Shown piece by piece: positions 2,159 to 49,288 of a DNA stretch of 64,000 nucleotides. Where the stretch lies: positions 1 through 64,000 of IMG/VR virus record IMGVR_UViG_2896262711_000007; one strand, written 5' to 3'. A program made the translations under genes and the position numbers. Source of the DNA: a virus (Duplodnaviria; Caudoviricetes). The notes beneath the pieces were generated by a model that saw nothing but the letters and a program-made list of their open reading frames with translations, made no database searches and was not told the DNA's origin. Positions within the stretch are counted from its first letter, which is position 1. Every line of letters begins with the position of its first letter.

Positions 2159-2642
2159 ACATGCGGTGGAGTTCCTGAAACGTTCCAGACCCGGAGAGGG
2201 GGAATGGAGGGGCGATGAAGTAGCGCATGCGGGTGGCGCCCGCTGACCATAACCCCGCCAGCCCGGCACCGTGTCCGGGCAGCAGAACCAGCATCCCCAA
2301 GCGGAGCGTCGCATACGTGTCGGCACCGCGGGGACGATGACACCGGAAGGTACGAAGCGGGGCGTCGTGGCTCGCCAAGACCCGGTCCCAACATCCAGGC
2401 GCTGGCCTGGTGCGGTGACGGTGCGGATCGAGCCGGCCCCAGCTTCAATTCAACAGGAATTCAGCGCGACGCTATGCCGCTGCGCTCGCTCGCGCCTCAT
2501 CGGGAGGCGAGGGCTACTGGGGGCTTGCCGGCCCTCTTCGCCGCGTGAGTCAAGCACGCACAGCCTGACCAGAGCCGGTTGATCCGGCCATCCCGCCATC
2601 GCCTGCAGAGCGACGCGCGGATAGTTGCAGAGCTGTGAAGCA

Positions 2643-3314
2643 ATGTCACACAATAGTATTGCAACCCCGGCCAATCCGGGGCCTTGGAAGATCCGCATCG
2701 TCGCCTATCGGCTCATGCCGGTGGCGGAAATTCTCGACAATCCAAGAGCTTGGCGAACGCATCCTGAAAAGCAGCGCAATGCGCTGCGGGCTGCTCTCGA
2801 CCACGTCGGATTGGTCAAGCCGCTCATCTACAACGAGCGGACGAACCGACTCGTGGATGGCCGCGCCCGTCTCGATCTGGCCCGGCGGGACGGTCAGGAG
2901 ATGCTGCCAGTCATCATCGTCGACCTCAGCGAGGATGAAGAGGCGCTGGTCCTTGCCACGCTCGATCCGCTGACCGAACTGGCGGAGGTCGACACCGAAG
3001 CTCTCCAGCGTCTGCTTGCCGAGGTGTCAGTCACCGATACCTCGCTCATGGCGCTGCTGGCGGAGATCAGCGGGGATGTCGATCTCTCCAGCTTCGACGA
3101 ACAGCCGCAGGCTGGCGACCTTCTGGACGGGAACAGCGGTGGTCAGGCGCCTCCCTCGAACGCGGCTCCCCAGCAGCCAGCAAGCCCACCGCAGGAGCCT
3201 ACGCCACCGGCTGATTTCCCATCCTTTGGGGAGGACATCGAGACCCAGTACTGCTGCCCGAAATGCGGCTATCGCTGGTCGGGAAAGCCAAACGCGGGTG
3301 GGGGCGATGAGTGA
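2643..3314 (+). CDS. ParB/Srx N-terminal domain protein with C-terminal CPKCG zinc ribbon
   Basis: NPRAWRTH..Q, GLVKPLIYN, LVDGRARL motifs; YCCPKCGYRW; stop overlaps the MTase start, as in phage DNA-modification operons. Confidence 0.8.
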   Translation: MSHNSIATPANPGPWKIRIVAYRLMPVAEILDNPRAWRTHPEKQRNALRAALDHVGLVKPLIYNERTNRLVDGRARLDLARRDGQEMLPVIIVDLSEDEEALVLATLDPLTELAEVDTEALQRLLAEVSVTDTSLMALLAEISGDVDLSSFDEQPQAGDLLDGNSGGQAPPSNAAPQQPASPPQEPTPPADFPSFGEDIETQYCCPKCGYRWSGKPNAGGGDE

Positions 3315-4669
3315 GTGTCCGCATCTGGGTGGAGCGCGATGGAGGCCTCCCGTTGGGCGGCGATCAGTCACGGATACGGCGGTTTCCTGGGATTGCCCAC
3401 GAGTTCATCGAAGTCGCCGGTCGGCCGCTCCCCACTCTCACCACCAGACCGTTCCGCATTGTCATCGAGAGGGACGGGAAGGAGGAGCCTATGCGGCCTC
3501 CTGATGGCAAGCCTCCCTATCGAGTGCCCAGCATGGCAGAGGTTGCCGCGCTCCCGTGGAACGGCTTTTCCGTCGCCTCGACCTTCAGCGGCTGCGGCGG
3601 CTCGTCCCTCGGCTACCGCATGGCCGGCTTCCGGGTGCTCTGGGCATCGGAATTCATCGAGGCGGCGCGGAACACCTACCGGGCGAACGCGTCCCCCTAC
3701 ACGATCGTCGACCCGCGGGACATCCGGCAGGTCAAGGCATCGGATATCCTCGACGCCATCGGCATGAAGCCGGGAGAGCTGGACCTCTTCGACGGTTCGC
3801 CGCCCTGTGCCTCCTTCTCGACCTCCGGAAAGCGGGAGGCGGGGTGGGGCAGGGTCAAGAAGTACAGCGACACCGAGCAGCGTACCGACGACCTGTTCTT
3901 CGAATACGCCCGGCTGATCCAGGGGCTGAGGCCGAAGACCTTCGTGGCGGAAAACGTCTCCGGTTTGGTGAAGGGAACGGCCAAGGGGTATTTCCTGGAA
4001 ATTCTCCAGACGCTGAAGCGCGGCTACCGCGTCGAGGCCAAGCTCCTCGATGCGCAATGGCTCGGTGTCCCGCAAGCCCGCCAGCGGCTGATTTTCGTCG
4101 GCGTCCGGGAAGACCTCTGTTTCTCGCCGGCGTTCCCGAAACCGCTGCCGTTCAGGTACACGGTCCGAGACGCGATCCCTTGGATTTGCGGCATCGGCGG
4201 AATTCGGGAGAGCGGCTTTTCCGGAGAGCGAATGGTGTCGTCAAATTCCCCATGTCCGACCATCATGGCTGGCGGCGGGAACGGGATGAACACATCACAA
4301 TTCGGCGTCGAGGCGGAAACGGACATCAGCCGCTTCGCGATTGGAGAGGAATGGGACAAGCTGAAACCGGGGGAACAGTCCGACCGCTTCTTCCAGTTGG
4401 TCAAGCCGCCGCTCGACGGTCCCTGCCCGACGATCACGGCATCGGGTGGTAGCGGCTCGATTGCCGGCGTTGTCCACCCGACGGAAAAGCGGAAATTCAC
4501 AATTCCGGAACTTCGGCGGATTTGCGGATTCCCGGATGACTTCGTTCTGACCGGGACCTACCAGCAGCAATGGGAGCGGCTCGGCCGGGCGGTTCCGCCG
4601 GTGATGATGATGCACATCGCCGGGGCGGTGCGGGACGGTGTCCTTAGAAGGCTGCCCCGGGGCGCGTGA
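3311..4669 (+). CDS. C5 cytosine DNA methyltransferase-family enzyme (candidate carboxymethyltransferase)
   Basis: Motif I TFSGCGG, catalytic GSPPC, ENV, QARQRL, motif X variant LGRAVPP; alternative start ATG 3491 after GGAGGAG. Confidence 0.9.
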   Translation: MSVRIWVERDGGLPLGGDQSRIRRFPGIAHEFIEVAGRPLPTLTTRPFRIVIERDGKEEPMRPPDGKPPYRVPSMAEVAALPWNGFSVASTFSGCGGSSLGYRMAGFRVLWASEFIEAARNTYRANASPYTIVDPRDIRQVKASDILDAIGMKPGELDLFDGSPPCASFSTSGKREAGWGRVKKYSDTEQRTDDLFFEYARLIQGLRPKTFVAENVSGLVKGTAKGYFLEILQTLKRGYRVEAKLLDAQWLGVPQARQRLIFVGVREDLCFSPAFPKPLPFRYTVRDAIPWICGIGGIRESGFSGERMVSSNSPCPTIMAGGGNGMNTSQFGVEAETDISRFAIGEEWDKLKPGEQSDRFFQLVKPPLDGPCPTITASGGSGSIAGVVHPTEKRKFTIPELRRICGFPDDFVLTGTYQQQWERLGRAVPPVMMMHIAGAVRDGVLRRLPRGA

Positions 4670-4694
4670 GCGCCCCAGGGGTGGCAGGCGTTGA

Positions 4695-5324
4695 TCAGGA
4701 GGCGCGGACGGTGAAGATCATCCCCTCCTTGCTGATCATCGCCGCGCCTTCCAGCTTCCGGACACTCCGGCGGATCATCCCCTTCTGCTGCGTCGGGGCC
4801 AGCCTGGCGAAACCGCCATCCTCTTTCTTCCACCGGTCGCGAACCGCACCGAACTTGCAGGGGCCGATGGCCTTCATGAAGCCGAGAACCCGCCGGTCGT
4901 TCTCGTTCAGTTCCTCCTTCGGAGCGGTGCTGACTTCCGTCTCCGAGCCCTCGCCACCGGTCACCGCCACCGCACTTGGCGCTTCGCCCATTTCGGACGC
5001 CGCGCCAGCCTGAGCCTCCTCCTCCTGGGGGATGGCAACGGCCGGCGGCACGGTCACGGGATCGGACGGAGCCAACGTGGTTTCCGGTCCGGCCGGGATA
5101 TCGGTCATGTCGGCCTCGCTGAGGTCGCAGCCGGGAGGGAATTCCAGTCCGGCCGCCTTCATCGCCTTCAGGACGGTCGTCTGGTCCGCCTGCATCCTGG
5201 CGACCAGCTTGGTGATCCGGTCAACCCCGACGGTGTGGCTCTCGAAGCGGGTGATGGTCCCGCTGGACAGCTGATTGAAGAGCACGACCAGTTCCTTGGT
5301 AGTGAGCTTCGACAGGTCAATCAT
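4695..5324 (-). CDS. Hypothetical protein, possible C-terminal winged-helix DNA-binding domain
   Basis: 209-aa ATG ORF with AAAGGA RBS; acidic linker; basic helical C-terminus; inverted relative to neighbours. Confidence 0.6.
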   Translation of the reverse strand: MIDLSKLTTKELVVLFNQLSSGTITRFESHTVGVDRITKLVARMQADQTTVLKAMKAAGLEFPPGCDLSEADMTDIPAGPETTLAPSDPVTVPPAVAIPQEEEAQAGAASEMGEAPSAVAVTGGEGSETEVSTAPKEELNENDRRVLGFMKAIGPCKFGAVRDRWKKEDGGFARLAPTQQKGMIRRSVRKLEGAAMISKEGMIFTVRAS

Positions 5325-5526
5325 TGTAGCATCCTTTGCGTTGTGTGTTTCGCGATGATGCTACTATTTGGTGCGAATGCATCGCTGTACAGTGCAATGC
5401 AGGCCCCTGGTCTGGAAATTTCCGGAGGCAGGAACAGCCGCATTTCCAGGCTTTGCCGAGCCTCATAAAATCCTGCGTGAGCAAGCACGCGCGATCAGCT
5501 TTCCCCAACGGAAATTGGATCGTGCC

Positions 5527-6225
5527 ATGAACCCAAAACCTGAAATTCTGGAAACCGGGAAATCTGAAATTCCCAGCTTGGAGATTCCCCGCAACTGGAC
5601 CTTCGAGAAAGCGGGCATAGCCGCCGCCTTTGACCGCCATGTCCGGGAGCAGCTTCCCTGGTACGATCTTGCCACCGGCGCCATAGCCCACATCGCCAGG
5701 CACTACATCCCGGCTGGCGGGCTGGTCTACGATATCGGCGCCTCGACGGGGAATGTCGGGCGAGCTCTGGCCGAAACCCTCAAGGACCGCCGAGCCCGGC
5801 TGGTGGCCGTCGAATCCTCCGCCGAGATGGTTGCCCGCTATGATGGGCCGGGGGAGGTCATCCAGACCGATGCGCTCGCCTATGACTATGAGCGCTTCGA
5901 TCTCGGTGTCTGCTTCCTCCTGCTGATGTTTCTGCCGGTCTCTCGACGGGCCGCATTCATTGAGCGACTGCGGGAGCGGATCAAACCGGGCGGCGCGCTG
6001 ATCGTCTTCGACAAGTGCGAAGCTGCCGCCGGTTACCCCGCGACGGTCCTCTGGCGCCTGACGCTGGCCGGCAAGGTCTCGGCCGGTGTCGACCCGGCGG
6101 AGATCGTCGCGAAGGAGCTCAGCCTCTGCGGCGTGCAGCGCCCTATCACGGAGGATGTGATCGGCCGTGATGCCGTCGAATGGTTCCGCTTCGGTGAATT
6201 CGCCGGATGGCTGATCGAAGGGTAA
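5527..6225 (+). CDS. CmoA-like class I SAM-dependent enzyme (carboxy-SAM synthase family)
   Basis: NWTFE...FDRHVREQLPWY, VYDIGASTG, LMFLP, IKPGGALIVFDK, EIVAK, EWFRFGEF parallel the CmoA motifs DWTFD..F..M.QRSVPGY, VYDLGCSLG, LNPGGALVLSEK, WFQCFNF. Confidence 0.75.
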   Translation: MNPKPEILETGKSEIPSLEIPRNWTFEKAGIAAAFDRHVREQLPWYDLATGAIAHIARHYIPAGGLVYDIGASTGNVGRALAETLKDRRARLVAVESSAEMVARYDGPGEVIQTDALAYDYERFDLGVCFLLLMFLPVSRRAAFIERLRERIKPGGALIVFDKCEAAAGYPATVLWRLTLAGKVSAGVDPAEIVAKELSLCGVQRPITEDVIGRDAVEWFRFGEFAGWLIEG

Positions 6226-6399
6226 AGGAGGCGTCGCGGATCATCACGAGCCGTCACGCCGACCGCCTGAAACATCACGCTCGCGGGCCGGATCACGCCA
6301 GAGCGCACGGGCTAGAATGTTGAAATGATTGAATTGTGGCCGAAGGGGTCGGAAAGGCGTCACGGCCTCGACCTCGCGTGACATTCGGGAGGATCACAC

Positions 6400-7209
6400 A
6401 TGCCTCTGGCAAGAAGGAAAGAAGTCCCAAAGCCTCCGAAGGCTCCGAAAGCGGCCGTCAAGAAGGCCTACGTCGAGGGCATCCTTCAGGACGACGGCAC
6501 GCTGATCTATCCGAACACCGTGCAGTTGGCGAAGCAGTTCGGGCCGACGCGCGAAACCATCTCCCGGTGGATCAACAACGAAGGCTGGGCGTCTGAGCGG
6601 GCGATCTACCAGGAGCGGTTGGCGGAAGCGGCCGAGGTCCGGAAGGCGAAGATGCTGCCGAACGCACCGGGCGTCGAAGCCACGGCGCGGGAACTGAAGG
6701 AAGACCTGAAGGCTCAAGGGGTGACGGTCGAGCCGGCGTCAGAAGCGGAGCCGGGCAGCGTGCCGGACTTCCGGATGCACGTCATCGCAGGGGAGCGGGC
6801 GAAATTCGACACGACCTGCCTGACGCTGGCCAAGGCGCTCCAGGCGGAGGTCGCTGTCACCATCACCCGGTCCCGCAAGAAGGTGCCGGACGTTGCCACG
6901 GGCACAGCGGTCGATCCGAGCCCGCTGGCACCGAAGGAGCTGCTGAGCCTCGCTGGCACGCTGGAACGCTCCCAGCGGATCGGCCGGCTGGCGCTGGGGC
7001 AGACCACCGAGAACCAGGGCCACAGCGCGCCTGATGGCAGCTCAATCAAGGTGGATGCGGAGCACACGGTCGATGTCAAGAAATCCGGCTACACCAACAT
7101 GGACCCGGCTGAGCTTGCGCGACTCTATGCTGAGACGGTTAGAACTGGCCCAGCGGACGGCAGCGGACAAGAAGCTCCAGGCGCTGACGCTGGCGCACAT
7201 AAGCAATAG
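6400..7209 (+). CDS. terS: Terminase small subunit (putative)
   Basis: GGAGG RBS; N-terminal HTH (LAKQFGPTRETISRW); QRIGRLALG; overlaps terL. Confidence 0.65.
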   Translation: MPLARRKEVPKPPKAPKAAVKKAYVEGILQDDGTLIYPNTVQLAKQFGPTRETISRWINNEGWASERAIYQERLAEAAEVRKAKMLPNAPGVEATARELKEDLKAQGVTVEPASEAEPGSVPDFRMHVIAGERAKFDTTCLTLAKALQAEVAVTITRSRKKVPDVATGTAVDPSPLAPKELLSLAGTLERSQRIGRLALGQTTENQGHSAPDGSSIKVDAEHTVDVKKSGYTNMDPAELARLYAETVRTGPADGSGQEAPGADAGAHKQ

Positions 7210-8695
7210 CTGCGTCGACTTCGTCAACGACTGGTGCTGGACCTACGATCCTCGCGAGATCGGGAAGGGCAGGTCGCCTTACATGCCCTTCGACCTGTTC
7301 CCGAAGCAGGCGGAGTTCCTGCTGTGGCTGGAGGAGCGGGTAGATAAAGGCGATGAATGGCTGGTGGAGAAGTGCCGAGACGCCGGCGCCTCCTACCTGA
7401 CCGTCGCCTTCGCCCTTCATCGGTGGCTGTTTCGGGACGCCTTCAAGGTGACATTCGGTTCCCGCGTCGAGGATGCCGTCGACAAGGCGGGCAACCCGGA
7501 CACGATCTTCGAGAAGCTGCGGATCATCCTTCGCCGCCTGCCGCTTTGGATGCTCCCCGCCGGCTTCGATGAGCGGCGGCACAGCCTCTACATGCGGCTC
7601 ATGAACCCGGCCAACGGCAGCGTGATCAGCGGTGAAGGCGGCCCGAACATGGGCCGTGGCGGTCGCTCTGCCATGTATGTGGTCGATGAGGGCGCGCACA
7701 TCGAGCGGGCTGAGAAGGTCGAAGCGGCTATCATCGGCAACGCCGATTGCCGCGGCTGGATCTCGTCGGCCAACGGCATGGGCAACCTGTTCTATCGGAA
7801 GCGGCAGAACGACGACGTCAAGGTCTTCACCTTCCGCCTGGAAGATGACCCCCGCAAGACGCCGGAATGGATCAGCCGGAAGAAGGCGACGACGGACCCG
7901 GTGACCTGGGCACAGGAATACGAGATCGATTACGGTGCGTCGGCGGAGGGCGTCTTCATTCCCGGCCCGTGGGTCAACGCCGCGGTCAAGCTCGGGAAGC
8001 TGCTGGGCGACCGCCTCAAGCCGTCAGCCGTCGGCGTGGCCGGCTTGGACGTCGGTGGCGGCGGCAGCGGCAAGACCGTGCTGGTGAAGCGCATGGGGCC
8101 ATTGGTGCTGATGCCGAAGGCCTGGAACTCCGCGGACAACATCACCACGACGCACGAGGCGATCGAGGATGCCCGCGCCGCCGGCTGCGGCATCATGAAC
8201 TACGATTCCATCGGCGTTGGCAACACCGTCACCAGCACTCTGATGCATGCCGGAAAGACGGGCCTCAAGGTCTACCCGATCAACGTCGGGAACCCGCCGA
8301 CGGACGCCGAATGGCCGGACGGTCGGACATCGAAGGAGATGTTCGCCAACCTCAAGGCCGAATTGTGGTGGATGGTCCGGTGCGCCTTCCAGCGCAGTTA
8401 CGAGCTCGTGCAGTTCCTGGAAGGGGATTCGAAGGGCGTCGAGCATCCTCTGCAGGATGTCATCGTTCTGCCGGAAGGCAGTAAAGAACTGACCGGCCAG
8501 CTCCCCGTCCCGAAGATGCTGCGCAACGGGAGGGGGCTGATCGCCGTGGAGTCCAAGGACTCGCTGAAGCGCCGAGGCATCCCTTCTCCCGACTACGCCG
8601 AAGCGCTGGTGCTGTCCTTCGCACCGGAGCCCGTCACCGCATTCGTCCTGCCTTCGATCACCCCGATCTGGGGAGGGCGCCCGACCGTCGGCTGA
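7073..8695 (+). CDS. terL: Terminase large subunit
   Basis: WTYDPR, LFPKQ, EKCRDAGAS, GRGGR, Walker B VVDEGA, nuclease GLDVGGG and SPDYAEAL; start uncertain (7034, 7073 or 7127). Confidence 0.92.
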   Translation: MSRNPATPTWTRLSLRDSMLRRLELAQRTAADKKLQALTLAHISNSCVDFVNDWCWTYDPREIGKGRSPYMPFDLFPKQAEFLLWLEERVDKGDEWLVEKCRDAGASYLTVAFALHRWLFRDAFKVTFGSRVEDAVDKAGNPDTIFEKLRIILRRLPLWMLPAGFDERRHSLYMRLMNPANGSVISGEGGPNMGRGGRSAMYVVDEGAHIERAEKVEAAIIGNADCRGWISSANGMGNLFYRKRQNDDVKVFTFRLEDDPRKTPEWISRKKATTDPVTWAQEYEIDYGASAEGVFIPGPWVNAAVKLGKLLGDRLKPSAVGVAGLDVGGGGSGKTVLVKRMGPLVLMPKAWNSADNITTTHEAIEDARAAGCGIMNYDSIGVGNTVTSTLMHAGKTGLKVYPINVGNPPTDAEWPDGRTSKEMFANLKAELWWMVRCAFQRSYELVQFLEGDSKGVEHPLQDVIVLPEGSKELTGQLPVPKMLRNGRGLIAVESKDSLKRRGIPSPDYAEALVLSFAPEPVTAFVLPSITPIWGGRPTVG

Positions 8696-8738: not shown

Positions 8739-10835
8739 ATGACCGACCAACCCGCTTCCGCCCCTGCCGTGATCGAGAAGGCCGGCAGCCAAGCCGGGCT
8801 GCTGACCGAAGTCGGGCGCGGCGGCCTTCGGCATTGGGGCGGCTATGTGTATGACGACGAGGACACGAGGCTCCAGGGCCTGCAAGCCGTCCGGCAGTAC
8901 CGCAAGATGACCAAGGACCCGACGGTCGCGGCGATGCTGTTCGCTCTGACGACGCTGCTCCGGTCGGTCAACTGGCGCGTCGAGGCGACCGACGACACCC
9001 AGGAGCATAAGGACGCCCGCGATTTTGCTGAGGGCGTTCTCTTCCAGGACATGGAGCACACCTGGAACGACTTCATAGCCGACGCGGCTTCGATGCTGCC
9101 CTATGGCTTCGCCCCCTTCGAGATGGTCTACAAGAAGCGATCCGGCACCGCCAAGGGCATGGACCCGCTCAAGGGCAGCATCTACAACGACGGCCGGATC
9201 GGCCTGAAGAAGATCGCGCTCCGCCGGCAGGACACCGTCCAGCGCTGGTGGTTCGACGATGAGACGGATGACCTGCTCGGCCTCTACCAGCTCGACCCTA
9301 TGCGAGGCCGGGAAATTCAGGTTCCGATGGATCGGCTGGTGCTGCTCCGGACGACGCCGAACAGCGGCAACCCGGAAGGCAAGTCGATTCTGGAAGCGGC
9401 CATCCGGTCCTACGAGCAGCTTCGCGTGTTCGAGCACGCCGAGGCTTCCATTGCGGTCCGCGCGTCCGGCATCGTGACGCTGGGTATTCATGTGGATGCC
9501 TATAACGACCCGACCAAACTGGCGGTCTGGGAAAGGCTGGCGCAGCAGATCTCCGAGGACCGGGCCGGCTACATCGTTCTCCCGACAATCCTCAACAAAG
9601 ATGGGGAAAAAGTCGACGCCTACACGGTCAGCTACACCGTCGCCGACGGCAGGCGCACGGGCGACTTCACCCCGATCATCGCCCGGAAGAAGCAGGAGAT
9701 CACCGCCGTCGCGCTGGCGGACTTCATTTTACTCGGCCACAATAACAAAGGAGCGCTCGCGCTCAGCGTCGACAAGACGGACCTTTTCAAAGAGGCCGGT
9801 ACTGCGATCCTGGGTAGCATCAGGGACGCTGTGAACCGGATCGTCCTGCCGCGCATATGGGCGGTGAACGGCCTGCCGCGCGACACGATGCCCGCGCTTC
9901 AGCATGACGATCTCGACAACGAGAACCTTCAGGTTCTGTCCGCCTTCCTGTCCGCGATGACCGCGGCCGGCATGCAGATGGACGACACGCTGGAAGATGC
10001 GCTGCGCACGAAGGCGAACCTGCCGCTCAAGCCGCGCACGGCGGAGACGGGGCCGACAGACCAGCCGCCGCCGGGATCGCCGAGCAAGACGCCTCCGGCT
10101 AAGCCAGGACAAGCAGGCGGGGGCGATGAAGGTGACGGGCTTGCCGACGCCGCGCCGGAAGCAAGCGAGACCAAGCCGCCGGCCAAACGCTCTTCCAAGC
10201 CAGGGCAGGTCGCCAAGGCTGCGCCCGAAGACATCGAGACGCTTGGCCGGATGTTGCCGGACGATCCGGCATATCGGGAAGCGCTGGCGGTGCTGGCCGG
10301 CGGGCCGATCCCCGGCGGCATCGACGCTGAAGAAGGAGGCGCGCCCGCGGCTGGGCCCGGCCCTTTTCATCAGGCGCTGACGAAGCATAACCGCTACCAT
10401 GACGCCCGCGGCCGGTTTACGTTCGGGCCAGAAAATGGCGGCGGGAACGGCGACAGCGTGAAGGACTTCCTCGAATCTGATGCGTCCGGGCTGGTCGTGG
10501 TTGCCACGCTACCAGCCGACATCCAGGCTCATCTGGGGGCCAAAACGACCCGCGTGTTCCTCTCCTCGGACACCAGGGACAGTCACAAGAAGCACAAGTG
10601 GACCAGCGAGGATTTCGCTCTTCTCCAAGATCTTCTCGATCACGGGGAGGTCCGAACCGACCGAGACAACCATGTTGTGGTCGCGCACATCGACGGGATC
10701 TGGCGCTGCGCAGTGATCAAGGTGACGGGAGATCGGAAGGAGGTCTACCTGTCGTCCTTCCACCGCATGCGAGCGAAGCAGGTCTACGACTTCCCCAACA
10801 AGGGTAGTCTGATCCGAGCGGGACGGAAGGTTTGA
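8739..10835 (+). CDS. Portal protein (DUF935/Mu gp29-like) with C-terminal PBECR-like nuclease domain
   Basis: Follows terL; YRKM..DPTVAAML, NPEGKSIL, ADFILLGH, GALALS.DK; Pro/Ala linker, then HNRYHDARGRF and a ~120-aa domain ending VIKVTGDRKEVYLSSFHR. Confidence 0.85.
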   Translation: MTDQPASAPAVIEKAGSQAGLLTEVGRGGLRHWGGYVYDDEDTRLQGLQAVRQYRKMTKDPTVAAMLFALTTLLRSVNWRVEATDDTQEHKDARDFAEGVLFQDMEHTWNDFIADAASMLPYGFAPFEMVYKKRSGTAKGMDPLKGSIYNDGRIGLKKIALRRQDTVQRWWFDDETDDLLGLYQLDPMRGREIQVPMDRLVLLRTTPNSGNPEGKSILEAAIRSYEQLRVFEHAEASIAVRASGIVTLGIHVDAYNDPTKLAVWERLAQQISEDRAGYIVLPTILNKDGEKVDAYTVSYTVADGRRTGDFTPIIARKKQEITAVALADFILLGHNNKGALALSVDKTDLFKEAGTAILGSIRDAVNRIVLPRIWAVNGLPRDTMPALQHDDLDNENLQVLSAFLSAMTAAGMQMDDTLEDALRTKANLPLKPRTAETGPTDQPPPGSPSKTPPAKPGQAGGGDEGDGLADAAPEASETKPPAKRSSKPGQVAKAAPEDIETLGRMLPDDPAYREALAVLAGGPIPGGIDAEEGGAPAAGPGPFHQALTKHNRYHDARGRFTFGPENGGGNGDSVKDFLESDASGLVVVATLPADIQAHLGAKTTRVFLSSDTRDSHKKHKWTSEDFALLQDLLDHGEVRTDRDNHVVVAHIDGIWRCAVIKVTGDRKEVYLSSFHRMRAKQVYDFPNKGSLIRAGRKV

Positions 10836-11499: not shown

Positions 11500-12723
11500 A
11501 TGTACAACGTCTTCACCGGCGACGTCCTGGACGTCCTGCCGACGATCCCTGATGCCTCCGTCGACGCGGTGCTGTGCGACCCGCCTTACGGGTTGAGCGA
11601 TCATCGGCACCGGGACGTGATCGCTTGCCTGACAGCGTGGCTGGCAGGGCAGCCGTATCGGCCGCGCAAGCGGGGTTTCATGGGCCGCGGCTGGGACGGC
11701 TGGGTGCCCGGTCCCGAGTGCTGGAGCGAAGTCCTCCGCGCTCTGAGGCCCGGCGGTCACGCGCTAGTGTTTGCTGGCACGCGGTCCATGGACTTGATGG
11801 TAGTGGCATTGCGGTTGGCGGGCTTTGAAATCCGCGAGTGCATCCGGTCGCTGAATGGGTCGGACCATTATCCAGCCTGGGTCTATGGCGGCGGACTGGC
11901 GAAGCATGAGGCGCAGATCAGGCCGGGATGGGAGCCTGTCATCATCGCACGCAAGCCGCTGGACGGTACGTTGGCGGGCAACATCGCCAAACACGGCACC
12001 GGAGGGCTGAACATCGAAGGGTGCCGCATCGCCCGCGGCGGCGATAAGGGTCAGCACCCGATCAACGTCATTCACGACGGGTCGGACGAAGTGGCAGCCG
12101 AGTTCGCCGCGCTGCCTGACACCAGCAGGCCTTGCGAGAAGCGTTCGAAGGGTGAGGATGACCGTAGGCCGGGAGGCACAGGGGTTGTCTATTCTGGTGG
12201 CTGGGGAGAGCGCCGCCGCAACCAAATCGAGAGCCATTATGATGACGCCGGGACCGCCGCCCGCTTCTTCTACGCCGCGAAGGCATCGGGACGTGATCGC
12301 TGGCTCTACTGCCGCATCTGCGGCACTGCCCATCCCAAGCGGGAGATCGGCGCACACGAGCACGGCCGGGATGACGCCGAACACATCGTCATGCACCCCA
12401 CTGTCAAGCCCACCAGCCTGACGGAATACCTCGCGCGCCTGGTCATGCCCATTGGCGTCAACCGTCCGCGCCGCATCTTGGTGCCCTTCGCCGGCAGCGG
12501 GTCGGAGATGGTGGGCGCCCTGCGCGCCGGCTGGGAGGAAGTGATCGGGATCGAGATGGACCCGGACTATGTAGCCATCGCCGCCGGACGCTGCGAGGTG
12601 GCAAAGGTGGAGCCGCTGCCGCTGAAGAAGGCCGGTAAGAGCAAACGCAAGGCAGACACCACGCCAGCCACGGCCCCTGAGACGCCCGTCGCCCCTGACT
12701 TGTTCTCGACGGCTGCCGAGTAA
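11500..12723 (+). CDS. DNA N6-adenine/N4-cytosine methyltransferase (beta class)
   Basis: CDPPY, HPTVKP, PFAGSGS, GIEMD; GAGG RBS. Confidence 0.92.
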   Translation: MYNVFTGDVLDVLPTIPDASVDAVLCDPPYGLSDHRHRDVIACLTAWLAGQPYRPRKRGFMGRGWDGWVPGPECWSEVLRALRPGGHALVFAGTRSMDLMVVALRLAGFEIRECIRSLNGSDHYPAWVYGGGLAKHEAQIRPGWEPVIIARKPLDGTLAGNIAKHGTGGLNIEGCRIARGGDKGQHPINVIHDGSDEVAAEFAALPDTSRPCEKRSKGEDDRRPGGTGVVYSGGWGERRRNQIESHYDDAGTAARFFYAAKASGRDRWLYCRICGTAHPKREIGAHEHGRDDAEHIVMHPTVKPTSLTEYLARLVMPIGVNRPRRILVPFAGSGSEMVGALRAGWEEVIGIEMDPDYVAIAAGRCEVAKVEPLPLKKAGKSKRKADTTPATAPETPVAPDLFSTAAE

Positions 12724-20447: not shown

Positions 20448-21416
20448 ATGCCCTCGCCTACCCTGAACATGGCCCATGTGGACCGCCCGTTGACGAACAT
20501 GTCGATTGCCTACATGCAGTCGGCAACGGGCTTCGTCTTCAATCGGGTCTTCCCTCTCGTGTACGTCGAGAAGGAGAGCGACAAGTATTACGTCTTCGAC
20601 ATTGAGACCTTCCTGCGCGGTCGGGCGCGGCGTCGCGCTGACGGAACCGAGTCCGCTGGCGGCGGCTATAAGCTGTCGACTGACAGCTACTCGCTTGGCG
20701 ATCCGTTCGCATTCCACAAGGATGTGACGAAGCGTGAGCGGGACAACGCCGATAAGCCGCTCGATCCGGACCGGAACGCCACCGATTTCGTGACTCAGAA
20801 CATCCTGATCACCGCCGAGGAAGAGTGGGTCGGCAACTTCTTCAAGCCGGGTGTCTGGGACGGCCAGAAGATTGGCGGCGACACCACGCCCTTCTGGAAC
20901 GACTATGCGTCCAGCAACCCGATCACTGCCGTCGCGGATGCTCGGCTGTGGATCTGGAAGAACACCGGCCGCAAGCCGAACAAGTTCACCGTCGATCCGA
21001 CGACCGACGAGGTGCTGAAGAACCACCCGCTCATCCTCGACCGGACCGAGGGGCAGGTGATCGACGCCAATGTGCTGGCGAAGCTGTTCGAGGTGGATGA
21101 ATACCTCGTCGCCGGCGGCGTCCATCGCACCGGGGCGGAAGGGGTCGGCACCGGCGACTTCATCGCCGGGAAGCACGCCCTGCTGTCCTACGCTGCGCCG
21201 AATCCGGCGAAGGAGATGCCGTCCTGTGGTTACACCTTCGCCAAGACCGGCTCCGGCGTCGAAGGTGTCGACAAGGGCGTGCGTATCGCCCGCATCCCGA
21301 TGGACGTGCTCGGCATCGGCACCCAACGCATCGAGGGCGAGCTGTTCATCAACGCCAAGGTGACCGGCCAGCCGCTGGGCTTCTTCTTCGCCGACATTGT
21401 CGAGCAAGTGGCATGA
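20448..21416 (+). CDS. Major capsid protein
   Basis: HVDRPLTNMSIAY.Q, FP.V.V.KESDKYY, PSCGYTF; TAAGGAG RBS. Confidence 0.88.
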   Translation: MPSPTLNMAHVDRPLTNMSIAYMQSATGFVFNRVFPLVYVEKESDKYYVFDIETFLRGRARRRADGTESAGGGYKLSTDSYSLGDPFAFHKDVTKRERDNADKPLDPDRNATDFVTQNILITAEEEWVGNFFKPGVWDGQKIGGDTTPFWNDYASSNPITAVADARLWIWKNTGRKPNKFTVDPTTDEVLKNHPLILDRTEGQVIDANVLAKLFEVDEYLVAGGVHRTGAEGVGTGDFIAGKHALLSYAAPNPAKEMPSCGYTFAKTGSGVEGVDKGVRIARIPMDVLGIGTQRIEGELFINAKVTGQPLGFFFADIVEQVA

Positions 21417-22018
21417 TGAAGGAAGCCATTGGCCAGTTCGGTGGGAGGGTGCGCAAGCCCCTCCGCACTGGCATCGGTGTTCTCTGCATCGGCACGGAGA
21501 TCACCGCCGAACAGGCCGCGAAATGGCCCACGCAGAACCGCATGGCCATGGCCCGGACGGAGCATGTGTTCTGGTATCCGGCACCCTTCCAGAGCGAAGC
21601 CCCCACCGAAGGGACCGGCCCGGCGGACAGCGGCGCGCAACCCGAAACGGCGACGGCAACGGTCGCGCTGGGGGCGGGCATGGAGCCCGCGGTGACCAGC
21701 GTTACCTCCGCCGAGAAGGCGGATGGTGACACCTCCCCCACCGCGCCAACGGCTTCGTCGACCACGGCAACCAAAGGAGCCGGACCGGCGGGCACTGCAG
21801 AGCAGACGGAGCCGCCTCCGAGCGGTCAGCCTGCCTCACCACCTGCTGGCCCGGGCCTGCCGACCATCGACCCCGAAACGGCCGAGCGTGACGAGCTGCG
21901 CGCCTGGCTGATCAAGGCCGGTGACGAGCCGGCCCCGGCGCTCGGAACCGACAAGCTCCGTCAGCGGGTCCGCGACAAGCTCGCGCTCTCCTCCGGCGGC
22001 AGCAACCAGGAGGGATAA
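21413..22018 (+). CDS. Hypothetical virion-associated protein (low-complexity linker, short helical C-terminal domain)
   Basis: ATGA overlap with the capsid stop; C-terminal ERDELRAWL...LGTDKLRQRV. Confidence 0.65.
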   Translation: MMKEAIGQFGGRVRKPLRTGIGVLCIGTEITAEQAAKWPTQNRMAMARTEHVFWYPAPFQSEAPTEGTGPADSGAQPETATATVALGAGMEPAVTSVTSAEKADGDTSPTAPTASSTTATKGAGPAGTAEQTEPPPSGQPASPPAGPGLPTIDPETAERDELRAWLIKAGDEPAPALGTDKLRQRVRDKLALSSGGSNQEG

Positions 22019-28787: not shown

Positions 28788-31700
28788 ATGCCCGATGCAG
28801 TTCTTTCCGTTGGCATTGAAACTTCCGAGACTGAACGTGGTTCCAGGGTCTTCCGCCGGGAAATGGCGGATATGGCCAACAGCGCCCGCGACGGCATGAG
28901 CGCGGTCGACCGCTACAACACCTCGCTGGGCGCCGGCGGCTCTGCTACCGACCTGTTCGCTAAGCAGACCGCCACCATGGCTGCCGGCATCAAGGCGCTG
29001 GAGGGCAACCTCGCAACGAGCACACGCGCCGTCAATGACCTGAGCCTGAAATTCGACGTCGTCCGGCAGGCGGCCAAGAATGCCGTCACCTCCCTTCAGG
29101 ACTTCGGACGCACCAAGTTCACCGGCGATGTCACGGCGCAGATGAACCGTCTCGCGGAAGACATGACCCGCGCCATGGATGCCGGCGGCAAGGGTGCTGT
29201 CTCCGCGGCCCGCGCTGCCCAGAAAGAGATCCTCACGCTCGCCCGCCAGCAAGCCGACGAACAGCTGGCCGCGGTCCGGGAGGCGGCACAGAAGCGCATT
29301 GCCGGCGCCCAAGAGGAATACGAGCGCATCAGGGAATTGCACAAGGGCGCGAAGACGGAGATCGCCGCGCAGGAACGCGCTGCAGCCCAGCAGGCGCTGG
29401 AGCAGGCCAAGGCATCCGCTGCATCCGACATCGCCACCACGAAGGCGGCGAACTCCGCCACCCTGAATGAACTTAAGGCTCGGACGAACGAGATCATCGC
29501 CCTGAAACAGCGGGAGTCCGTCGTCCAGAGCGAATATGAGCGAGGCCTGGGAGCGGTTGCCAAAGCGGAGCAGCAGCTCGACGGGGCGCTGACCCGGCTG
29601 ATCGCTACCGAGAAGGCGCATGCTACCCAGGCCGCCGCCAATTCGCAGGACAATGAGCGTCTGCTGGCCGTCGTACGCCGCGGCACGGAGGTTCGGAAAG
29701 CCAGTACGGCCGCGATCACCGCAGAGACCGCGGCGCTCCGTTCTCACGCCGACGCCACCCAGCAGAGCGGCCGCTACTCGGTGAGCAATGGCGGGCTGCT
29801 GGCGGCCAACGTGCCCGCGCCGGCATCCGTCAAACCCGTGCCAGCCTCGCAGTCCGCTACGGACCTGGAGCAGGAGAAGGTTGATGTCATAGCCCTGACC
29901 GATTCCCTCGATAAGCTGATCCTCCGTCACGATTACGAGTCCGCGGCCATCGCCCGGCGCAATGAAGCGCTGGACACCCTGCATGCTGCCCGCAAGGCCG
30001 GCATCATCGATGACGAAGACGAATATGACCGGCTGCGCAAACTGATCACCGGAGATGCTGCCAAGGCCGATGCTCTCTCCGCGCTGAAGAACCAGTACAG
30101 CGGCGTCTCGGAGGCCCAGCGCCGCTACACGGCCGAAGTCGAGCGCGCCACCAAGATCCTGGATGCCGCCGGCGCGTCCGATGAAGACCGCGCCGCGATC
30201 CTGCATGAAGTGGCGCAGGCCTACGATCCGACCATTGCCGCCCAGAAGAAGGCCATGGAGGATGCAGAGCGCCTGGCGGCGGAAAACGACCGCCTTGCCG
30301 CCTCCTACACCTCGCTTATGGGCAGCATCGATCCGGCCATCCGCCGGCAGGCCGCCTATGAGCAGGCACTGGCCCAGGTCGTCGCCTACCACACCAGCAT
30401 CGGCAGCAGCACCGAAGCCATGGCCGCCGACATGGACCGCGTGAAGAACGCCATGAGTCCCGCTGCGATCGAGGCGCAGAAGGAGGCCGATGCGGTTACC
30501 AAGCTTCTCGACCGCCTGGAGCCGACGGCAAAGAAGTCCCGCGAACTTGCTGCCGATCAGGAACTGCTCCGCAAGGCGATGGCTGCCGAAGGTGCCGATG
30601 TCGCCAAGCTGACCGCGGCGATGGAAAAGCTGAACGCTGAACAGGACCGGCTCGGCAAAAAGATGTCGAAGGGCGAGGCCCGCATGAACCAGCAGGTTCT
30701 GGGATCCGTCGGCGTCAACACCGTCCAGTCCCTGGCGTCCGGCATCCCGCTCGAAACCGTCGCGATGACGCAGGGCACCCAACTTCTGACCCTGCTCCAG
30801 GGCGGCAGCGTGGCATTGCTCGGCTATGCCGCGGCGGCAGTGGCGACGATTGGCCCCGTGGTGGCACTGGGCATCGCCGTCAAGAACTACACCGGCTCGC
30901 TGCGGGAACTGGACCGCGTCAACCGCCTAACCGGCAACAGCTCGGGCATGGCGACCCAGCAGATTGTCGCCCAGGCTGACGCGGCTGCGGCTGCCGCAGG
31001 CATCTCGCGCAGCGCCGCCCGTGATCTGGAAACCCAGTACGCCGGAACCGGTCGCATCGGCGGGCAGATGCTGGGTGAGGTCACGAAAGCCACCAAGGAC
31101 TGGGCCACCGCTACCAGCCAGGATATGGATTCAGCGAGCAAGGATCTCGCTGGCATGTTCACCGATCCGGCTCGCGCCGCGGAGGAACTGACCAAGAAGT
31201 ACGGGTTCTTTTCTGACGCGCAGTTGCAGGTCATCAAGAACTACCAGGCACAGGGCAATCTGGAACAGGCGCAGGCGCGGCTGCTCGATGGGATCAGCTC
31301 CCGAACGAAAGGAGCGGCTGAGAATGTGGTTTGGTATGCCAAGGCATGGGAAAAAGTCTCAAAGGTCGTTTCTGATGCCTCAGACGCTTCAGCCCGTCTC
31401 TTCGTCGACCAGGAGAGCGCTGCCGAAAAAGCAAGGCGCCTGACAAATGAACTGACGATCCAGCGCACCAGCCGTGGCGGCATCGTAAATGATCGCACCA
31501 CCGGCCCCTTGCCGCAAATGGTGACACGGATTACCGGCGGTCGTGGTGGTGGCGTCCGAACGCTTGAAGGCTCAAATGACGCCTGGAAGCGTCTCGAACT
31601 CATGAACGCTGAGGAGATGAATCGGCGTCAACTCCAGATGTCGAGCACGCAGAAGAACGCGGCAGATGCGAGGCGTCTCGAAGCACAGCTGATGGACTTC

Positions 31701-34700
31701 GTGCGCGCCACGGATCCCAGCATCAACGCCGCACAGAGCTTCGCTAACGCCGAAAAGCTGGTCAATGAAGCCGTCGCGAAGAATCCTGCACTCCAAGATC
31801 AGGCCACCCGTGCGCTCGGCATCTACAAGCAGCAGTTGATCGAGGCGATTGACCCGGCGAAGGTCTTCGCAATCGAAATGGAGCGGCAGGCCCGCGTCAT
31901 GGAAGCGGCGGCCGGCCGGGCGCGCGACTTTGAGCAGCAGCGGCAAGCTGTGCTCCAGAAGCGGGGTGCTCAGCCCGGCGACAGCCTCACGGCCGCAGAG
32001 ACCGCGGACATCAACCAGGGTCTGGACCGCAAGTATGCGGCCGAGGCGACTGACCGGCACCGCACGGCAGAGGAGGCAATCACCGACGCCCGCACTCTCG
32101 CGGCCGCCATCGCTTCGCTGTCGCAACCTGCCATCATCGCCGCACAGGCTCAGGCTGCTTACAATAAGGTGATCCGCGAGACGACGGACGCCACCCACCC
32201 GCTTGGGGACGTTCAGGCAGCTCAGCAGGCGCAGCAGGATGCCCTCACGAAGAGCACCATCGAATGGTCGGCGCAGGTCGATGCGTCGGTCGCCACCGCG
32301 AGCCTCGCGGTAGCCGCGTCCCAGCGGTTGGCGGCTGCCCAGGCCAAGGGCGGCGACATCGCCATGGCCCAGGCGCAGGCACAGAACGTCTATGCGGAGA
32401 ACATTGCCCGCGGTGTCGATCCGACCCGCGCGCTCGCCCTGGCGCAGGCCGACCTGAGCAAATCGGTGGCGACGTTGGCCGGGCAGCAGGCGGCCTGGAA
32501 CCGCGACATGCTGGAGCAGATCGATGCCGCTCACCGTCTCGCGTTGGCGGAGTCCGTCTCCAGTGCGGCAGTGGCGGAAGCAGCGATCCAGAACAAGACC
32601 AGGGCGCAGGCGCTGAAGGAAGGCGTCGGCCTGGAGTCCGACCGCGCGCAGGCCATCGAGGCTGCGACCCGCGCCTTGGAGGCGCAAAATGCCGTCGCGC
32701 GCGTCAACAATTCGATCCGGCAGGGTAACCAGGATCTGAAGGTCGCCCGCGCCGAATATGACCTGCTGGGCGCCACGAACGCCGAGCGGGAGCGCTCGGT
32801 CGCCGTCCTCAAGGCCACGCTTGAGGTCCAGAACTCCGCGGACTGGCAGGCCGTGCCGCAGGCGACCCGCGATGCCTGGATCGCACAGGCCGGCGCGGTC
32901 GCGGAATATAAATCCCGCGTCGCCGATGCGACCGAGACCAGCCGCGACTTTGCCAACGTCATCACCAAGGGCTTCGAGGATGCCCTGCTGGGCGGAGAGA
33001 AACTGTCGAGCGTGTTCAAGGCGCTGGCCAAGGATATCGAACGCGTGTTCCTGCGCAGCTTTGTCACGAAGCCGATGGAGGGCTGGATCCAGGGCACGAT
33101 GACGAAGCTGCTGTCGCCGACGCCGGCCAACGACAACATGGTGAAGGCGGTCAACGACAACGATCCAGGTGGTTACCGGGCTGCGTTCGAGCGTCTGGCC
33201 GGCAACGCCGGAGTCGGCTCGCTCGGTACCCGCGGCAATCCGATGATCGTGCAGTTCGCCGACGGCAACGCGGCGCTGAACCTGAGCACGGCAACCAGTG
33301 GCGGCCCTATGCCGGTCGCGATCAAGGACGGCGGGCAGGTCGTCGACATGCTTCGCTCGGAAGCCCGCGCCCAGGGCGTGCCTGAGGATGTCGTTCTCGC
33401 CATCGCCAAGATCGAAAGCGGCTTCAAGCAGTATCGCGACGATGGCCGGGTACTGACCTCGGATGCAGGCGCCATGGGCGTTATGCAATTGATGCCCGGT
33501 ACCGCGAAATGGCTGGGCGTCGATGCCACCGACACCCAGCAGAACATCCAGGGAGGCGTCAAATTCCTGGCGATGCTGGGAAGGCAATTCGGCGGGAACT
33601 GGACCCTCACGGCCGGCGCATACAATGCCGGGCCAACCCGCATGACGGAACACCTGCGGGACGGTCGGGCATTGCCCGCCGAAGCCGTCAAATACATGGG
33701 AGACTTCGGGGCCACCATCAAATCGGCCAACACGGACGTTGCGTCTCTCACCGCCCGCGTCACAGGAGCAACTCGCGCTACCGAAGGCGTCACCGCTGCC
33801 CAGGAGTCCGCGCTCCAGGCGCAGTTCGATGCGATCGACGCTCAGAAGTCGTCCACCAGCACGGTCCAAACCCTCAACGATTCCCAGCAGACGCTGGTGG
33901 ACTCAGTGCTGGGCATCTCCCACGCCAACGAAAACGCCAGCCAAAGCGCAGTCTCTGTCGCCAACGATCTGACCTCTGCCGCCGTCGGCGCCGTGACCTT
34001 CGGTGATGCGGCTGCGACGGGGGCAGACAGCTTCCTGGGCAGTATCAAGAAGCTGGTCAGCGGTGCGTCCGACTTCTTCGGCGACATCCTCGGTATCGGG
34101 CAATCCAGCCAGCAGAAGGTCATCAAGAACTCTGACGGGAGCACCAGCTTCGCGCCGGCTACCAAGGGTGTCGGTGGCTCGTGGCTGTCCTCTCCCGTGT
34201 TTGGGCAAAGCGAATCCGCCCGGCCAGATTCCAACTTCGTCGGCCCGATGCCTGGCAGGGCTGCTGAAGGGATCGGCGGGTGGAATCCGAGCTGGGGACA
34301 GGTGATCCAGGGAATCGGCGGCATTGCCTCGGGTGCCGCGATGGCAACGCAGAAAGGGGCCAGCGTTGGGCAGCAGATCGGCGGGGGCCTGACTGCGGCC
34401 GGCGGTATCGCCGCGATGATCCCCGGTGGCCAGATCGTCGGCGGCGTCATGATGGCGGCCGGCGCGTTGCTGTCGGCCGTTACCGGGGCGAAGGATCGAG
34501 GTGAGAAGTACAGCATCAGCCACATCACCTTGGGCGCCAACGGCAAGTATGCACTCGGCAGTTACGCCGAAGACAATGGGGGCGATCCGACAAGGTTTAA
34601 CAGCGACGCCACCAAAGTCGCCAAGGGGCTGAACGACATCATCGCCCGGCTGAACCTGACTGCGACTGGCAAGGACAGCTACATCGATAGCAAGAACAAG

Positions 34701-48235: not shown

Positions 48236-48240
48236 CGACC

Positions 48241-48480: not shown

Positions 48481-48613
48481 GCTCGCCCCTCCCAAGCGGG
48501 GACCGTCGAGCATGCGCCCCTTTCCTCGCCACAGCAACCCCTCGCCCGCCTTTCACGCAGCAGCTTTTTACGTCCGCGAGAGAGGCCTCGCCGCCGGATG
48601 GCTGAACCGGCGA

Positions 48614-49285: not shown

Positions 49286-49288
49286 AAC

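Follow-up and report, generated by a model that had tools for sequence, protein, structure and literature searches.

A probable ligase-less CmoA-CmoX module for cytosine carboxymethylation in a temperate phage

Introduction

Which mark is placed on phage DNA by a C5-cytosine methyltransferase that carries arginine in motif X and is encoded near a relative of CmoA, the enzyme that makes carboxy-S-adenosylmethionine (carboxy-SAM, or Cx-SAM)? This question is raised by IMG/VR record IMGVR_UViG_2896262711_000007, a provirus of 79,783 bases whose CheckV completeness is given as 100. The stretch analysed here (hereafter the window) comprises its positions 1-64000. At the left end of the window, immediately 5' of the packaging genes, lies a four-gene module encoding a ParB-like protein, a CmoX-type methyltransferase, a hypothetical protein (orf209) and a CmoA-like protein. 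A first-pass annotation of this DNA had proposed that the element supplies its own cofactor and writes 5-carboxymethylcytosine (5cxmC), probably for anti-restriction. Judging from the encoded proteins, we consider it likely that these genes form a CmoA-CmoX cytosine carboxymethylation module of a temperate phage, which operates without an amide ligase and has 5cxmC as its end product.

The first-pass annotation also mentioned that a natural system of this type had been reported from a cyanophage. Such a system exists, namely CmoA-CmoX-CmoY of Synechococcus phage S-B43 (Yang et al., Nat Commun 2025, PMC12783734), and it removes most of the novelty from the present case. The window module is the published system in ligase-less form, and is therefore a further example rather than a new kind. 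A full-text literature search returned no other paper on natural Cx-SAM-dependent DNA modification. The survey described for the S-B43 system covered phage sequences from IMG/VR v4, UniProtKB and MGnify-derived data and yielded 5,615 CmoX candidates (having SPPC and R350), whose neighbours on the same contigs included 4,257 CmoA, 2,251 ligase and 1,660 ParBc genes (PMC12783734).

In the mechanism that we favour, the CmoA-like enzyme would convert SAM and host prephenate to carboxy-SAM. Residue Cys166 of the window CmoX would attack C6 of cytosine, and Arg426 would hold the cofactor carboxylate while the carboxymethyl group is moved to C5, giving 5cxmC at recognition sites in phage DNA. This would probably be the final mark, the provirus having no CmoY-type amide ligase, and it would most likely protect packaged DNA from restriction. 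The chemistry, and the resistance of carboxymethylated DNA to HhaI, have been shown for homologues, and we infer what is said below of the activity of the window pair, its target sequence, the timing of its expression and its anti-restriction role. The features of the module, in window coordinates, are as follows (SpCmoX is the S-B43 enzyme).

2625/2643-3314, plus strand: ParB-like gene; the open reading frame (ORF) opens with TTG at 2625 and has its first ATG at 2643; C-terminal CxxC...zinc-ribbon-like tail
3311-4669, plus strand: CmoX-type C5-methyltransferase gene; 452 amino acids from GTG at 3311, start uncertain
3797-3808, plus strand: SPPC catalytic motif, residues 163-166, with nucleophile Cys166; aligns with SpCmoX S95-C98
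4586-4588, plus strand: codon CGG for Arg426 in motif X, LGRAVPP; equivalent to SpCmoX R350 and M.HhaI N304
4695-5324, minus strand: orf209, conserved hypothetical gene of 209 amino acids, divergent from CmoA
5443-5471, plus strand: sigma-70-like promoter match TTTCCA-17-TAAAAT, 56 nt 5' of the CmoA ATG
5368/5527-6225, plus strand: CmoA-like carboxy-SAM synthase gene; 232 amino acids from ATG at 5527
6115-6141, plus strand: CmoA motif K-E-L-S-L-C-G-V-Q-R, holding Glu197 (the E. coli R199 position) and Arg205

The methyltransferase has the sequence features of CmoX

Database comparisons place the window methyltransferase closest to the S-B43 enzyme. It belongs to the Pfam family DNA_methylase (PF00145, 8.8e-51), and its best sequence match in the PDB is 8yf3_A at 3e-68, with M.HaeIII as the runner-up at 1.5e-23. 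Entry 8YF3 is SpCmoX, the enzyme by which phage S-B43 carboxymethylates DNA cytosine at C5 (PMC12783734). The first-pass annotation had listed motif I, the catalytic PC and ENV as retained, and all three are present, the PC as part of SPPC at residues 163-166, along with a QxRxR motif. It had also read motif X as LGRAVPP, with arginine encoded by CGG at 4586-4588, and our reading of the sequence agrees and places this codon in frame with 3311. Arg426 aligns with SpCmoX R350 both in a HMMER alignment counted by hand and in MAFFT, and in the HMMER alignment it pairs with the Asn of the M.HaeIII motif 'IGNAVP'. Furthermore, a MAFFT alignment of four proteins (A2) shows no variation at SpCmoX residues F25, E47, F48, D69, S95-P96-P97-C98 and R350, or at the cytosine-binding Glu of ENV and Arg of QxRxR. 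With 44% identity to SpCmoX, the window protein keeps every named Cx-SAM contact, and by sequence it has all of the features by which Yang et al. (2025) defined CmoX.

The reported behaviour of SpCmoX indicates what the motif-X arginine should do. This enzyme makes 5cxmC from carboxy-SAM, and its Arg350 stands at the position of M.HhaI Asn304 and touches the carboxymethyl group/carboxylate of the cofactor; the wild-type protein uses Cx-SAM only and refuses SAM, and the R350N variant uses neither cofactor (PMC12783734). The engineered carboxymethyltransferase M.MpeI N374K, which the first-pass annotation had named as a precedent, is likewise found in the literature, as cited in PMC12783734. There, too, a basic residue in place of the motif-X Asn redirects a C5-methyltransferase to Cx-SAM and gives 5cxmC. 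However, that residue is Lys, and the engineered enzyme is CpG-specific and dependent on the CmoA of E. coli, whereas the window enzyme has Arg, is natural and is accompanied by a dedicated synthase. Relative to SpCmoX, the window CmoX may also carry an extra N-terminal extension of ~66 amino acids. Among 34 related viral loci introduced below, two (L045 and L069) keep this extension from residue 2-3, and most align from residue 39-67.

A predicted CmoA-like synthase with a displaced basic residue

The first-pass annotation placed a CmoA-like gene less than 900 bp from the methyltransferase gene, and the measured distance, from the CmoX stop at 4669 to the CmoA ATG at 5527, is 858 bp. Two CmoA equivalog models are the top NCBIfam matches of its product (9.4e-13 and 4.4e-11). 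The sole PHROG match is phrog_4752 (2.2e-47), which is also the sole PHROG for E. coli CmoA, SpCmoA, the proteins of phages Mcat8 and TurkishDelight, and that of viral locus L037. When a profile of 67 relatives was compared with the PDB, E. coli CmoA (4GEK) was found at 7.3e-20, then 4IWN and 1IM8, with CysG at ~7e-11. The same three entries head the Foldseek results for an AlphaFold2 model of the protein (predicted local distance difference test, pLDDT, 84.8; predicted template modelling score, pTM, 0.80), with template modelling (TM) scores of 0.74-0.77 (0.76 for 4GEK). By profile and by fold, and with the N-terminal lid region included, CmoA is the closest relative.

Cofactor-contact residues of E. 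coli CmoA have been listed by Byrne et al. (2013, PMC3663124). In a MAFFT alignment, Y39, D62, G64, S66, D117, F137, R143 and K198 are kept in the window protein, D89 is changed to Glu, and E164 is changed to Asp, the single alternative that this report gives for that position (PMC3663124). Residues N90 and N132 are not kept, and the same is true of SpCmoA.

The first-pass annotation had drawn attention to a Glu at the position of the carboxylate-binding Arg, and had suggested that a nearby Arg (in GVQR) could substitute. Arg199 is described as the key residue for the cofactor carboxylate in E. coli CmoA (Byrne et al. 2013, PMC3663124), and both MAFFT and a profile alignment to 4GEK confirm that Glu197 occupies its position in the window protein. 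SpCmoA also has Glu there (MAFFT and HMMER alignments), and it is reported to make Cx-SAM with a turnover number (kcat) of 2.33 per s, ten times that of the E. coli enzyme (PMC12783734). Because this validated enzyme has Glu at the same position, Arg199 is not required for activity. We aligned 91 sequences, consisting of 85 CmoAs from the loci, the window protein and 5 reference proteins. Glu is found at the 199 position in 86 of the 91, and all 86 have a basic residue eight positions on (Arg in 85 and Lys in SpCmoA), whereas the four sequences with Arg199 have Val or Leu at the later position (basic in 0/4). In the TurkishDelight CmoA these two residues are Ala (at 199) and Gln. It is important to note that 85 of the 86 Glu-type sequences form one clade, such that the pattern represents about two independent lineages; Arg205 is invariant in the clade (alignment A3). 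This covariation (86/86 versus 0/4) supports the suggestion that Arg205 may take over from Arg199, and it yields a rule for phage CmoA sequences, in which Glu at E. coli position 199 is followed, eight residues on, by a basic residue. We speculate that the Arg199-to-Glu swap speeds product release.

A longer form of the protein starting with TTG at 5368 was set aside, given that homologues align from residues 2-24 of the 232-residue form, the RefSeq protein on plasmid p7 of Azospirillum argentinense has 230 amino acids, and the promoter-like site lies inside the longer ORF. This sigma-70-like site (5443-5471) is a weak match to the consensus and the single match within 2300-6500, where 0.5 are expected from shuffled sequences. 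It is a weak indication that CmoA has its own promoter, pointing away from orf209.

Motif-X arginine occurs together with CmoA

The first-pass annotation had made its proposal depend on an association between motif-X arginine and neighbouring cmoA genes. We found this association in 34 of 34 viral loci, in 5 genome loci and in the 4 isolated phages examined. The viral loci come from a CmoA-anchored survey of IMG/VR, in which 414 of 415 pattern matches encode relatives and the best 80 loci were analysed by tblastn with window and reference proteins. A CmoX-type methyltransferase lies 5' of CmoA in 34 of these best 80 loci, and all 34 carry G-R-[A/S]-V-P-P and SPPC. A different partner is present in another 44, and two with less than 600 nt of upstream sequence could not be classed. 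Many of the loci are near-duplicates, and dereplication at 97% CmoA identity leaves 21 CmoX-type, 22 other-partner and 2 unresolved groups.

With the CmoX query, species-representative bacterial genomes gave seven loci, five of which have the Arg motif and a downstream CmoA-like gene (Azospirillum himalayense and metagenome-assembled genomes, MAGs, of Caulobacterales, Bacillota, Verrucomicrobiota and Phycisphaerae). A partial match from Acidobacteriota reads LGNAVPP and has no CmoA within its 7.3 kb, and the remaining partial match does not cover motif X. Among isolated phages, an Arg-type methyltransferase adjoins CmoA in Moraxella phage Mcat8, Streptomyces phage TurkishDelight and Pseudomonas phage PaBG. 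Two SPPC-clade relatives have another residue at the motif-X position, namely Met in the enzyme of Flavobacterium phage FPSV-S2 and Leu in that of Methylophilales phage Melnitz-3. Their 1.5-kb flanks hold no CmoA, and neither phage is among the 16 phage records that match the CmoA query.

Some members of the SPPC clade have unusual features. In phages of Flavobacterium psychrophilum (FPSV/FpV group) and in Methylophilales phage Melnitz (L101:1426-2493 and L102:1396-2613), motif X of the enzyme takes the form IGMSVPP (Met) or IGLMVAP (Leu), and there is no CmoA nearby. Erwinia phage Yoloswag gp43 (L103:163-2271) is a C5-methyltransferase of this clade with motif-X Arg (LGRVCVP) and an insertion of ~350 amino acids directly after SPPC. 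Its last residues read ...HN, the next is Cys, and it looks like an intein that splits the active site. The methyltransferase matches included 48 Erwinia phage records.

Absence of a CmoY-type amide ligase and the position of orf209

The first-pass annotation saw no amide-ligase gene in the window, and this can now be extended to the entire 79,783-base record, which has no Asn-synthetase-type match. Specifically, searches with SpCmoY, TurkishDelight gp124 and the Pfam family Asn_synthase (PF00733) found nothing in the record at E≤1, and the PF00733 control was positive in 14 of 14 control genomes. Given that the provirus lacks a CmoY-type ligase, its predicted end product is plain 5cxmC. Among the 34 CmoX-type loci, an Asn-synthetase-type gene lies between or beside the pair in 15 (10 resemble TurkishDelight gp124 and 5 resemble SpCmoY) and is lacking in 19, and in many of the ligase-less loci CmoX abuts CmoA.

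In the window, the interval between CmoX and CmoA is occupied by orf209 on the minus strand, which sits where TurkishDelight-type loci hold their ligase. This ORF has a strong coding signature, with G+C of 0.84 at third codon positions (GC3) versus 0.49 at second positions (GC2). A homologue with 45% identity occupies the same place and orientation in a prophage of A. himalayense (L088), and a hypothetical coding sequence is annotated at this position on A. argentinense plasmid p7. No match to orf209 was found in Pfam, PHROGs or NCBIfam. An Atlas search gave a best score of 0.81, with DUF3489 at 0.78, and these are leads only.

Weighing the alternatives

Several points weigh against the view that the window pair produces 5cxmC as its end product. 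The activity of the pair is predicted from homology, and the proposed anti-restriction role is carried over from an HhaI digestion test made in vitro with DNA that SpCmoX had modified. The target-recognition region of the window CmoX is longer than and different from that of SpCmoX and aligns poorly with it, such that the GC specificity cannot be assumed and the target motif is not derivable. A divergent gene separates CmoX from CmoA, which means that their co-expression is not guaranteed, and the ligase searches covered Asn-synthetase-type enzymes only. Other points concern the CmoA-like protein, which is just 24-31% identical to E. coli CmoA and 23-26% identical to SpCmoA, and which lacks Arg199 and thus the salt bridge to the cofactor carboxylate. 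Its scores fall below the CmoA equivalog cut-offs of TIGR00740 and NF011995 (48.4 versus 193.3 bits and 42.7 versus 285), and the methyltransferases CysG and BelI follow closely in the fold comparison (TM 0.72-0.74), which makes the fold alone undiscriminating. The shortfall in score, the loss of Arg199 and the proximity of CysG and BelI, as well as the pairing of close CmoA relatives with a non-C5 enzyme, could be taken to mean that the product of the CmoA-like protein is not carboxy-SAM but another SAM derivative, or that the protein is an ordinary methyltransferase, and that the Arg-type enzyme moves some other group. We find this quite improbable. SpCmoA is a proven maker of Cx-SAM and has the same Glu, the compensating basic residue is present eight positions on in all 86 Glu-type sequences, SpCmoA included, the Arg of the partner methyltransferase is the carboxylate-binding residue of SpCmoX, and the profile favours CmoA over CysG (E-values of 7e-20 and 7e-11).

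A more serious, though still unlikely, alternative is that 5cxmC is merely an intermediate, and that a phage protein (for example, orf209 or the product of another provirus gene) or a host enzyme modifies its carboxyl group in a subsequent step, like CmoY in S-B43. Native S-B43 DNA is described as containing the glycine amide only and no free 5cxmC, and several ligase clusters with unknown amine substrates are noted in the same report (PMC12783734); the conserved and uncharacterised orf209 is located exactly at the ligase site of TurkishDelight-type loci. However, the two CmoY types and Pfam Asn_synthase found nothing in the record, orf209 has no enzyme-family match and is on the opposite strand, ligase-less loci account for 19 of the 34 relatives, and the published survey counts just 2,251 ligases per 5,615 CmoX candidates (PMC12783734). 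It is very improbable that the methyltransferase is a normal SAM-dependent enzyme making 5-methylcytosine and that the CmoA-like gene is an unrelated passenger. This would agree with the RefSeq labels of homologues ('DNA cytosine methyltransferase' and 'methyltransferase domain-containing protein') and with the fact that, in phages that lack CmoA, members of the SPPC clade can have Met or Leu at this position of motif X. Nevertheless, SAM is not accepted by SpCmoX (PMC12783734), the tie between motif-X Arg and CmoA holds at every viral locus, genome locus and isolated phage counted above, and the Asn, Met and Leu relatives have no neighbouring CmoA in the stretches fetched. Least probable of all is that the module is a decaying remnant that is not expressed or active in this provirus. 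In favour of this, the relative on plasmid p7 has an IS256 element between CmoX and orf209 and further insertion sequence (IS) elements around. Among the sequencing runs listed for the window, none has half or more of the sampled words and none is an RNA run, which speaks neither for nor against expression. In the window, however, all four genes are intact ORFs with a strong codon-position GC bias, all catalytic and cofactor motifs are kept, and CheckV rates the record as complete. The original proposal of a self-supplied cofactor, 5cxmC and a probable anti-restriction role is supported. The mechanism has been shown experimentally for SpCmoA and SpCmoX, and the window proteins are clear homologues of these.

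Probable host and cofactor supply

The nearest named homologues of the window CmoA are encoded on a plasmid of Azospirillum sp. HJ39 (93% identity) and in Azospirillum sp. Marseille-Q6669 (87%). The related prophage of A. himalayense has counterparts of ParB (70%), CmoX (73%), orf209 (45%) and the large terminase subunit TerL (78%). The same ParB-CmoX-orf209-CmoA module is also present on A. argentinense plasmid p7 (NZ_CP032328.1, 164 kb; L107:5089-9694), where IS256 separates CmoX from the orf209 homologue and IS630 copies lie around. Given these homologues and related prophage and plasmid modules, the host is most likely Azospirillum.

When the A. himalayense genome and the Caulobacterales MAG were compared with the CmoA model, each gave a single match at E≤1e-5, and this was the gene of the prophage. 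Neither of these two genomes, which are relatives and not the window's own host, has anything that reaches the CmoA or CmoB cut-offs, and the E. coli control does reach them. The lack of canonical CmoA and CmoB in related genomes fits with a phage that brings its own Cx-SAM synthase, and a host-side want of Cx-SAM synthesis would explain why it does so. If our reading is correct, natural DNA carboxymethylation, known from a marine cyanophage, also occurs in a temperate phage whose host genus lives in soil and associates with plants. The system would be a minimal one that lacks a ligase, and its 5cxmC should remain free. The additions made by this case are the temperate Azospirillum setting, the related hosts without CmoA/CmoB, the signature of Glu199 with a relocated base, and the divergent orf209. 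In addition, RefSeq names for the CmoX and CmoA homologues, such as those on plasmid p7 quoted above, are generic, and their annotation could be improved.

A possible second partner for phage CmoA

The main discovery has already been published and the window finding is confirmatory. The part that could open something new is a ParB-fused partner in sister loci. In 44 of the best 80 CmoA loci (L006-L044, L047-L050 and L079; for example, L037:3472-6657), CmoX is absent and the CmoA is ~50-67% identical to that of the window. The gene order at these loci is ParB-N protein, ParB-ParB-methyltransferase fusion, a 153-residue HAD/PNKP-phosphatase-like protein, CmoA and packaging genes (terminase). The fusion protein has 504-530 amino acids, with two ParB-N-like regions and a C-terminal class-I methyltransferase fold bearing an LDFGAG motif I and an SSVLNSVPF motif. 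It was seen in 42 of the 44 loci, and the other two are too short upstream and show the 153-residue gene only. The fusion matches phrog_5475 ('unknown function') at 1.4e-105 and belongs to a family of at least 681 members named only 'ParB N-terminal domain-containing protein' or hypothetical, and the assignment of the 153-residue protein is an Atlas lead (score 0.93-0.94).

The two kinds of locus are closely connected. In a FastTree tree, whose support values were not inspected, other-partner CmoAs nest inside CmoX-linked CmoAs, and the CmoA of L079 (other-partner) is 98.6-99.1% identical to those of the CmoX-type loci L078 and L074. The same synthase has evidently been exchanged between two partners. 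We also searched five whole other-partner records for a C5-methyltransferase. Three of these (58-65% complete) have none, and the other two encode one far from CmoA, with a GNAV motif X and a GYPC or SPSC catalytic motif. A search of the window's own record for the fusion gene found none.

The acceptor of the fusion protein cannot be guessed from its methyltransferase domain, whose model (pLDDT 81.6) resembles generic small-molecule class-I methyltransferases only, with TM scores of 0.31-0.45 among the matches listed. By sequence, the representative protein P0121 matched the PDB through its ParB part only (0.0023). A relationship to CmoB is not supported, as BLASTP of P0121 against E. coli CmoB matched the motif-I region only (E 0.27). 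A preliminary search described in PMC12783734 found no candidates for N6-adenine or N4-cytosine carboxymethyltransferases associated with phage CmoA. We regard the ParB-fused partner as a candidate second Cx-SAM-dependent DNA modifier. If it does use carboxy-SAM, there would be a second, undescribed carboxymethyl-type modification of phage DNA.

A broader reading that joins these observations is possible, although we hold it only tentatively and with some doubt. The Glu199-type CmoA clade would serve two interchangeable partners, either CmoX or the ParB-ParB-methyltransferase fusion, the latter always with the HAD/PNKP-like gene. In the window, where the phage is temperate and its host would make no Cx-SAM, unligated 5cxmC would be both the terminal and the functional mark. 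The exchange of Arg199 for Glu, together with the relocated base, would be an adaptation for fast product release, and orf209 would time cofactor synthesis.

Comparison with known systems

The window module and that of S-B43 share an SPPC C5-methyltransferase with a carboxylate-binding motif-X Arg and a phage CmoA with Glu at the R199 position, and the ParB-like neighbour in the window probably corresponds to the ParB-domain neighbour reported on many contigs in the S-B43 survey. They differ in that S-B43 is a lytic cyanomyovirus with CmoY and a glycine amide, whereas the window belongs to a temperate alphaproteobacterial prophage for which plain 5cxmC is expected. Moreover, the window CmoA has only ~23-26% identity to its S-B43 counterpart and is separated from CmoX by a divergent gene.

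Gene order in Mcat8 is the same as that of the window, with a hypothetical ORF at the ParB position followed by CmoX, CmoA, a small ORF, terminase and portal. The Mcat8 proteins are 48% (CmoA) and 45% (CmoX) identical to those of the window, and the TurkishDelight CmoX is 62% identical. Motif X reads GR(A/M/S)V across Mcat8, TurkishDelight and PaBG. TurkishDelight and PaBG add an Asn-synthetase-type ligase that is missing from the window, the PaBG CmoA keeps Arg199 in contrast to the Glu of the window clade, and none of the three phages has the divergent orf209. The PaBG locus (L100:3186-7149) has the order ParB-CmoX(GRSVPP)-CmoA-hypothetical-asparagine synthase, and its genes are annotated as 'DNA cytosine methylase', 'tRNA (cmo5U34)-methyltransferase' and 'asparagine synthase'.

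The window also shares with the E. coli CmoA/CmoB pathway for tRNA cmo5U (4GEK, 4IWN) the CmoA fold, SAM-binding residues and a presumed prephenate-dependent carboxylation of SAM. Unlike that pathway, it has no CmoB, its acceptor would be DNA instead of tRNA, its CmoA has Glu for Arg199 with a basic residue eight positions later, and its NCBIfam score is below the cut-off.

The ParB-like protein and other genes of the window

The ParB-like protein is a conserved accessory of the module. A homologue is encoded directly 5' of CmoX in 33 of the 34 CmoX-bearing viral loci, the exception (L073) having just 179 nt of upstream sequence, and ParB-like nuclease genes are annotated at the equivalent position in TurkishDelight and PaBG. 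Matches to PHROG ParB families range from 4.6e-15 to 5e-6, including phrog_620 ('ParB-like partition protein') at 4.6e-15, and phrog_498 (the ParB part of a ParB-methyltransferase family) is matched at 1.2e-17. NCBIfam gives a weak match to noc (1.3e-4), and nothing was found in Pfam at E≤0.01 (PF02195 was not recovered). The first-pass annotation described the ParB-like and methyltransferase genes as translationally coupled. The ParB stop codon TGA (3312-3314) does overlap GTG at 3311 as GTGA, but coupling holds only if this GTG is the true start.

The genes that follow the module include those for DNA packaging and a second DNA methyltransferase of the provirus.

6400-7209: ORF in the position expected for the small terminase subunit; no family match
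7034-8695: large terminase subunit (phrog_2)
8739-10835: 698-amino-acid ORF in the portal position
11500-12723, plus strand: second DNA methyltransferase, beta-class N6/N4, following the 698-amino-acid ORF; DPPY near the N-terminus; weak matches to CcrM models (~1e-11)

Farther downstream, ARAGORN predicts a tRNA-Arg(TCT) on the minus strand at 21665-21750, within a run of plus-strand ORFs. This prediction overlaps the ORF at 21413-22018 and may be a false call. A single ORF of 3,218 amino acids, with a coding-type GC3 of 0.79, occupies 28788-38444 among the plus-strand ORFs. Between 48000 and 52000, the G+C content is 0.54-0.55 as compared with ~0.64 elsewhere, and no long ORF with high GC3 was picked from 48235 to 52049. 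This low-G+C stretch could be a module boundary or a foreign insert.

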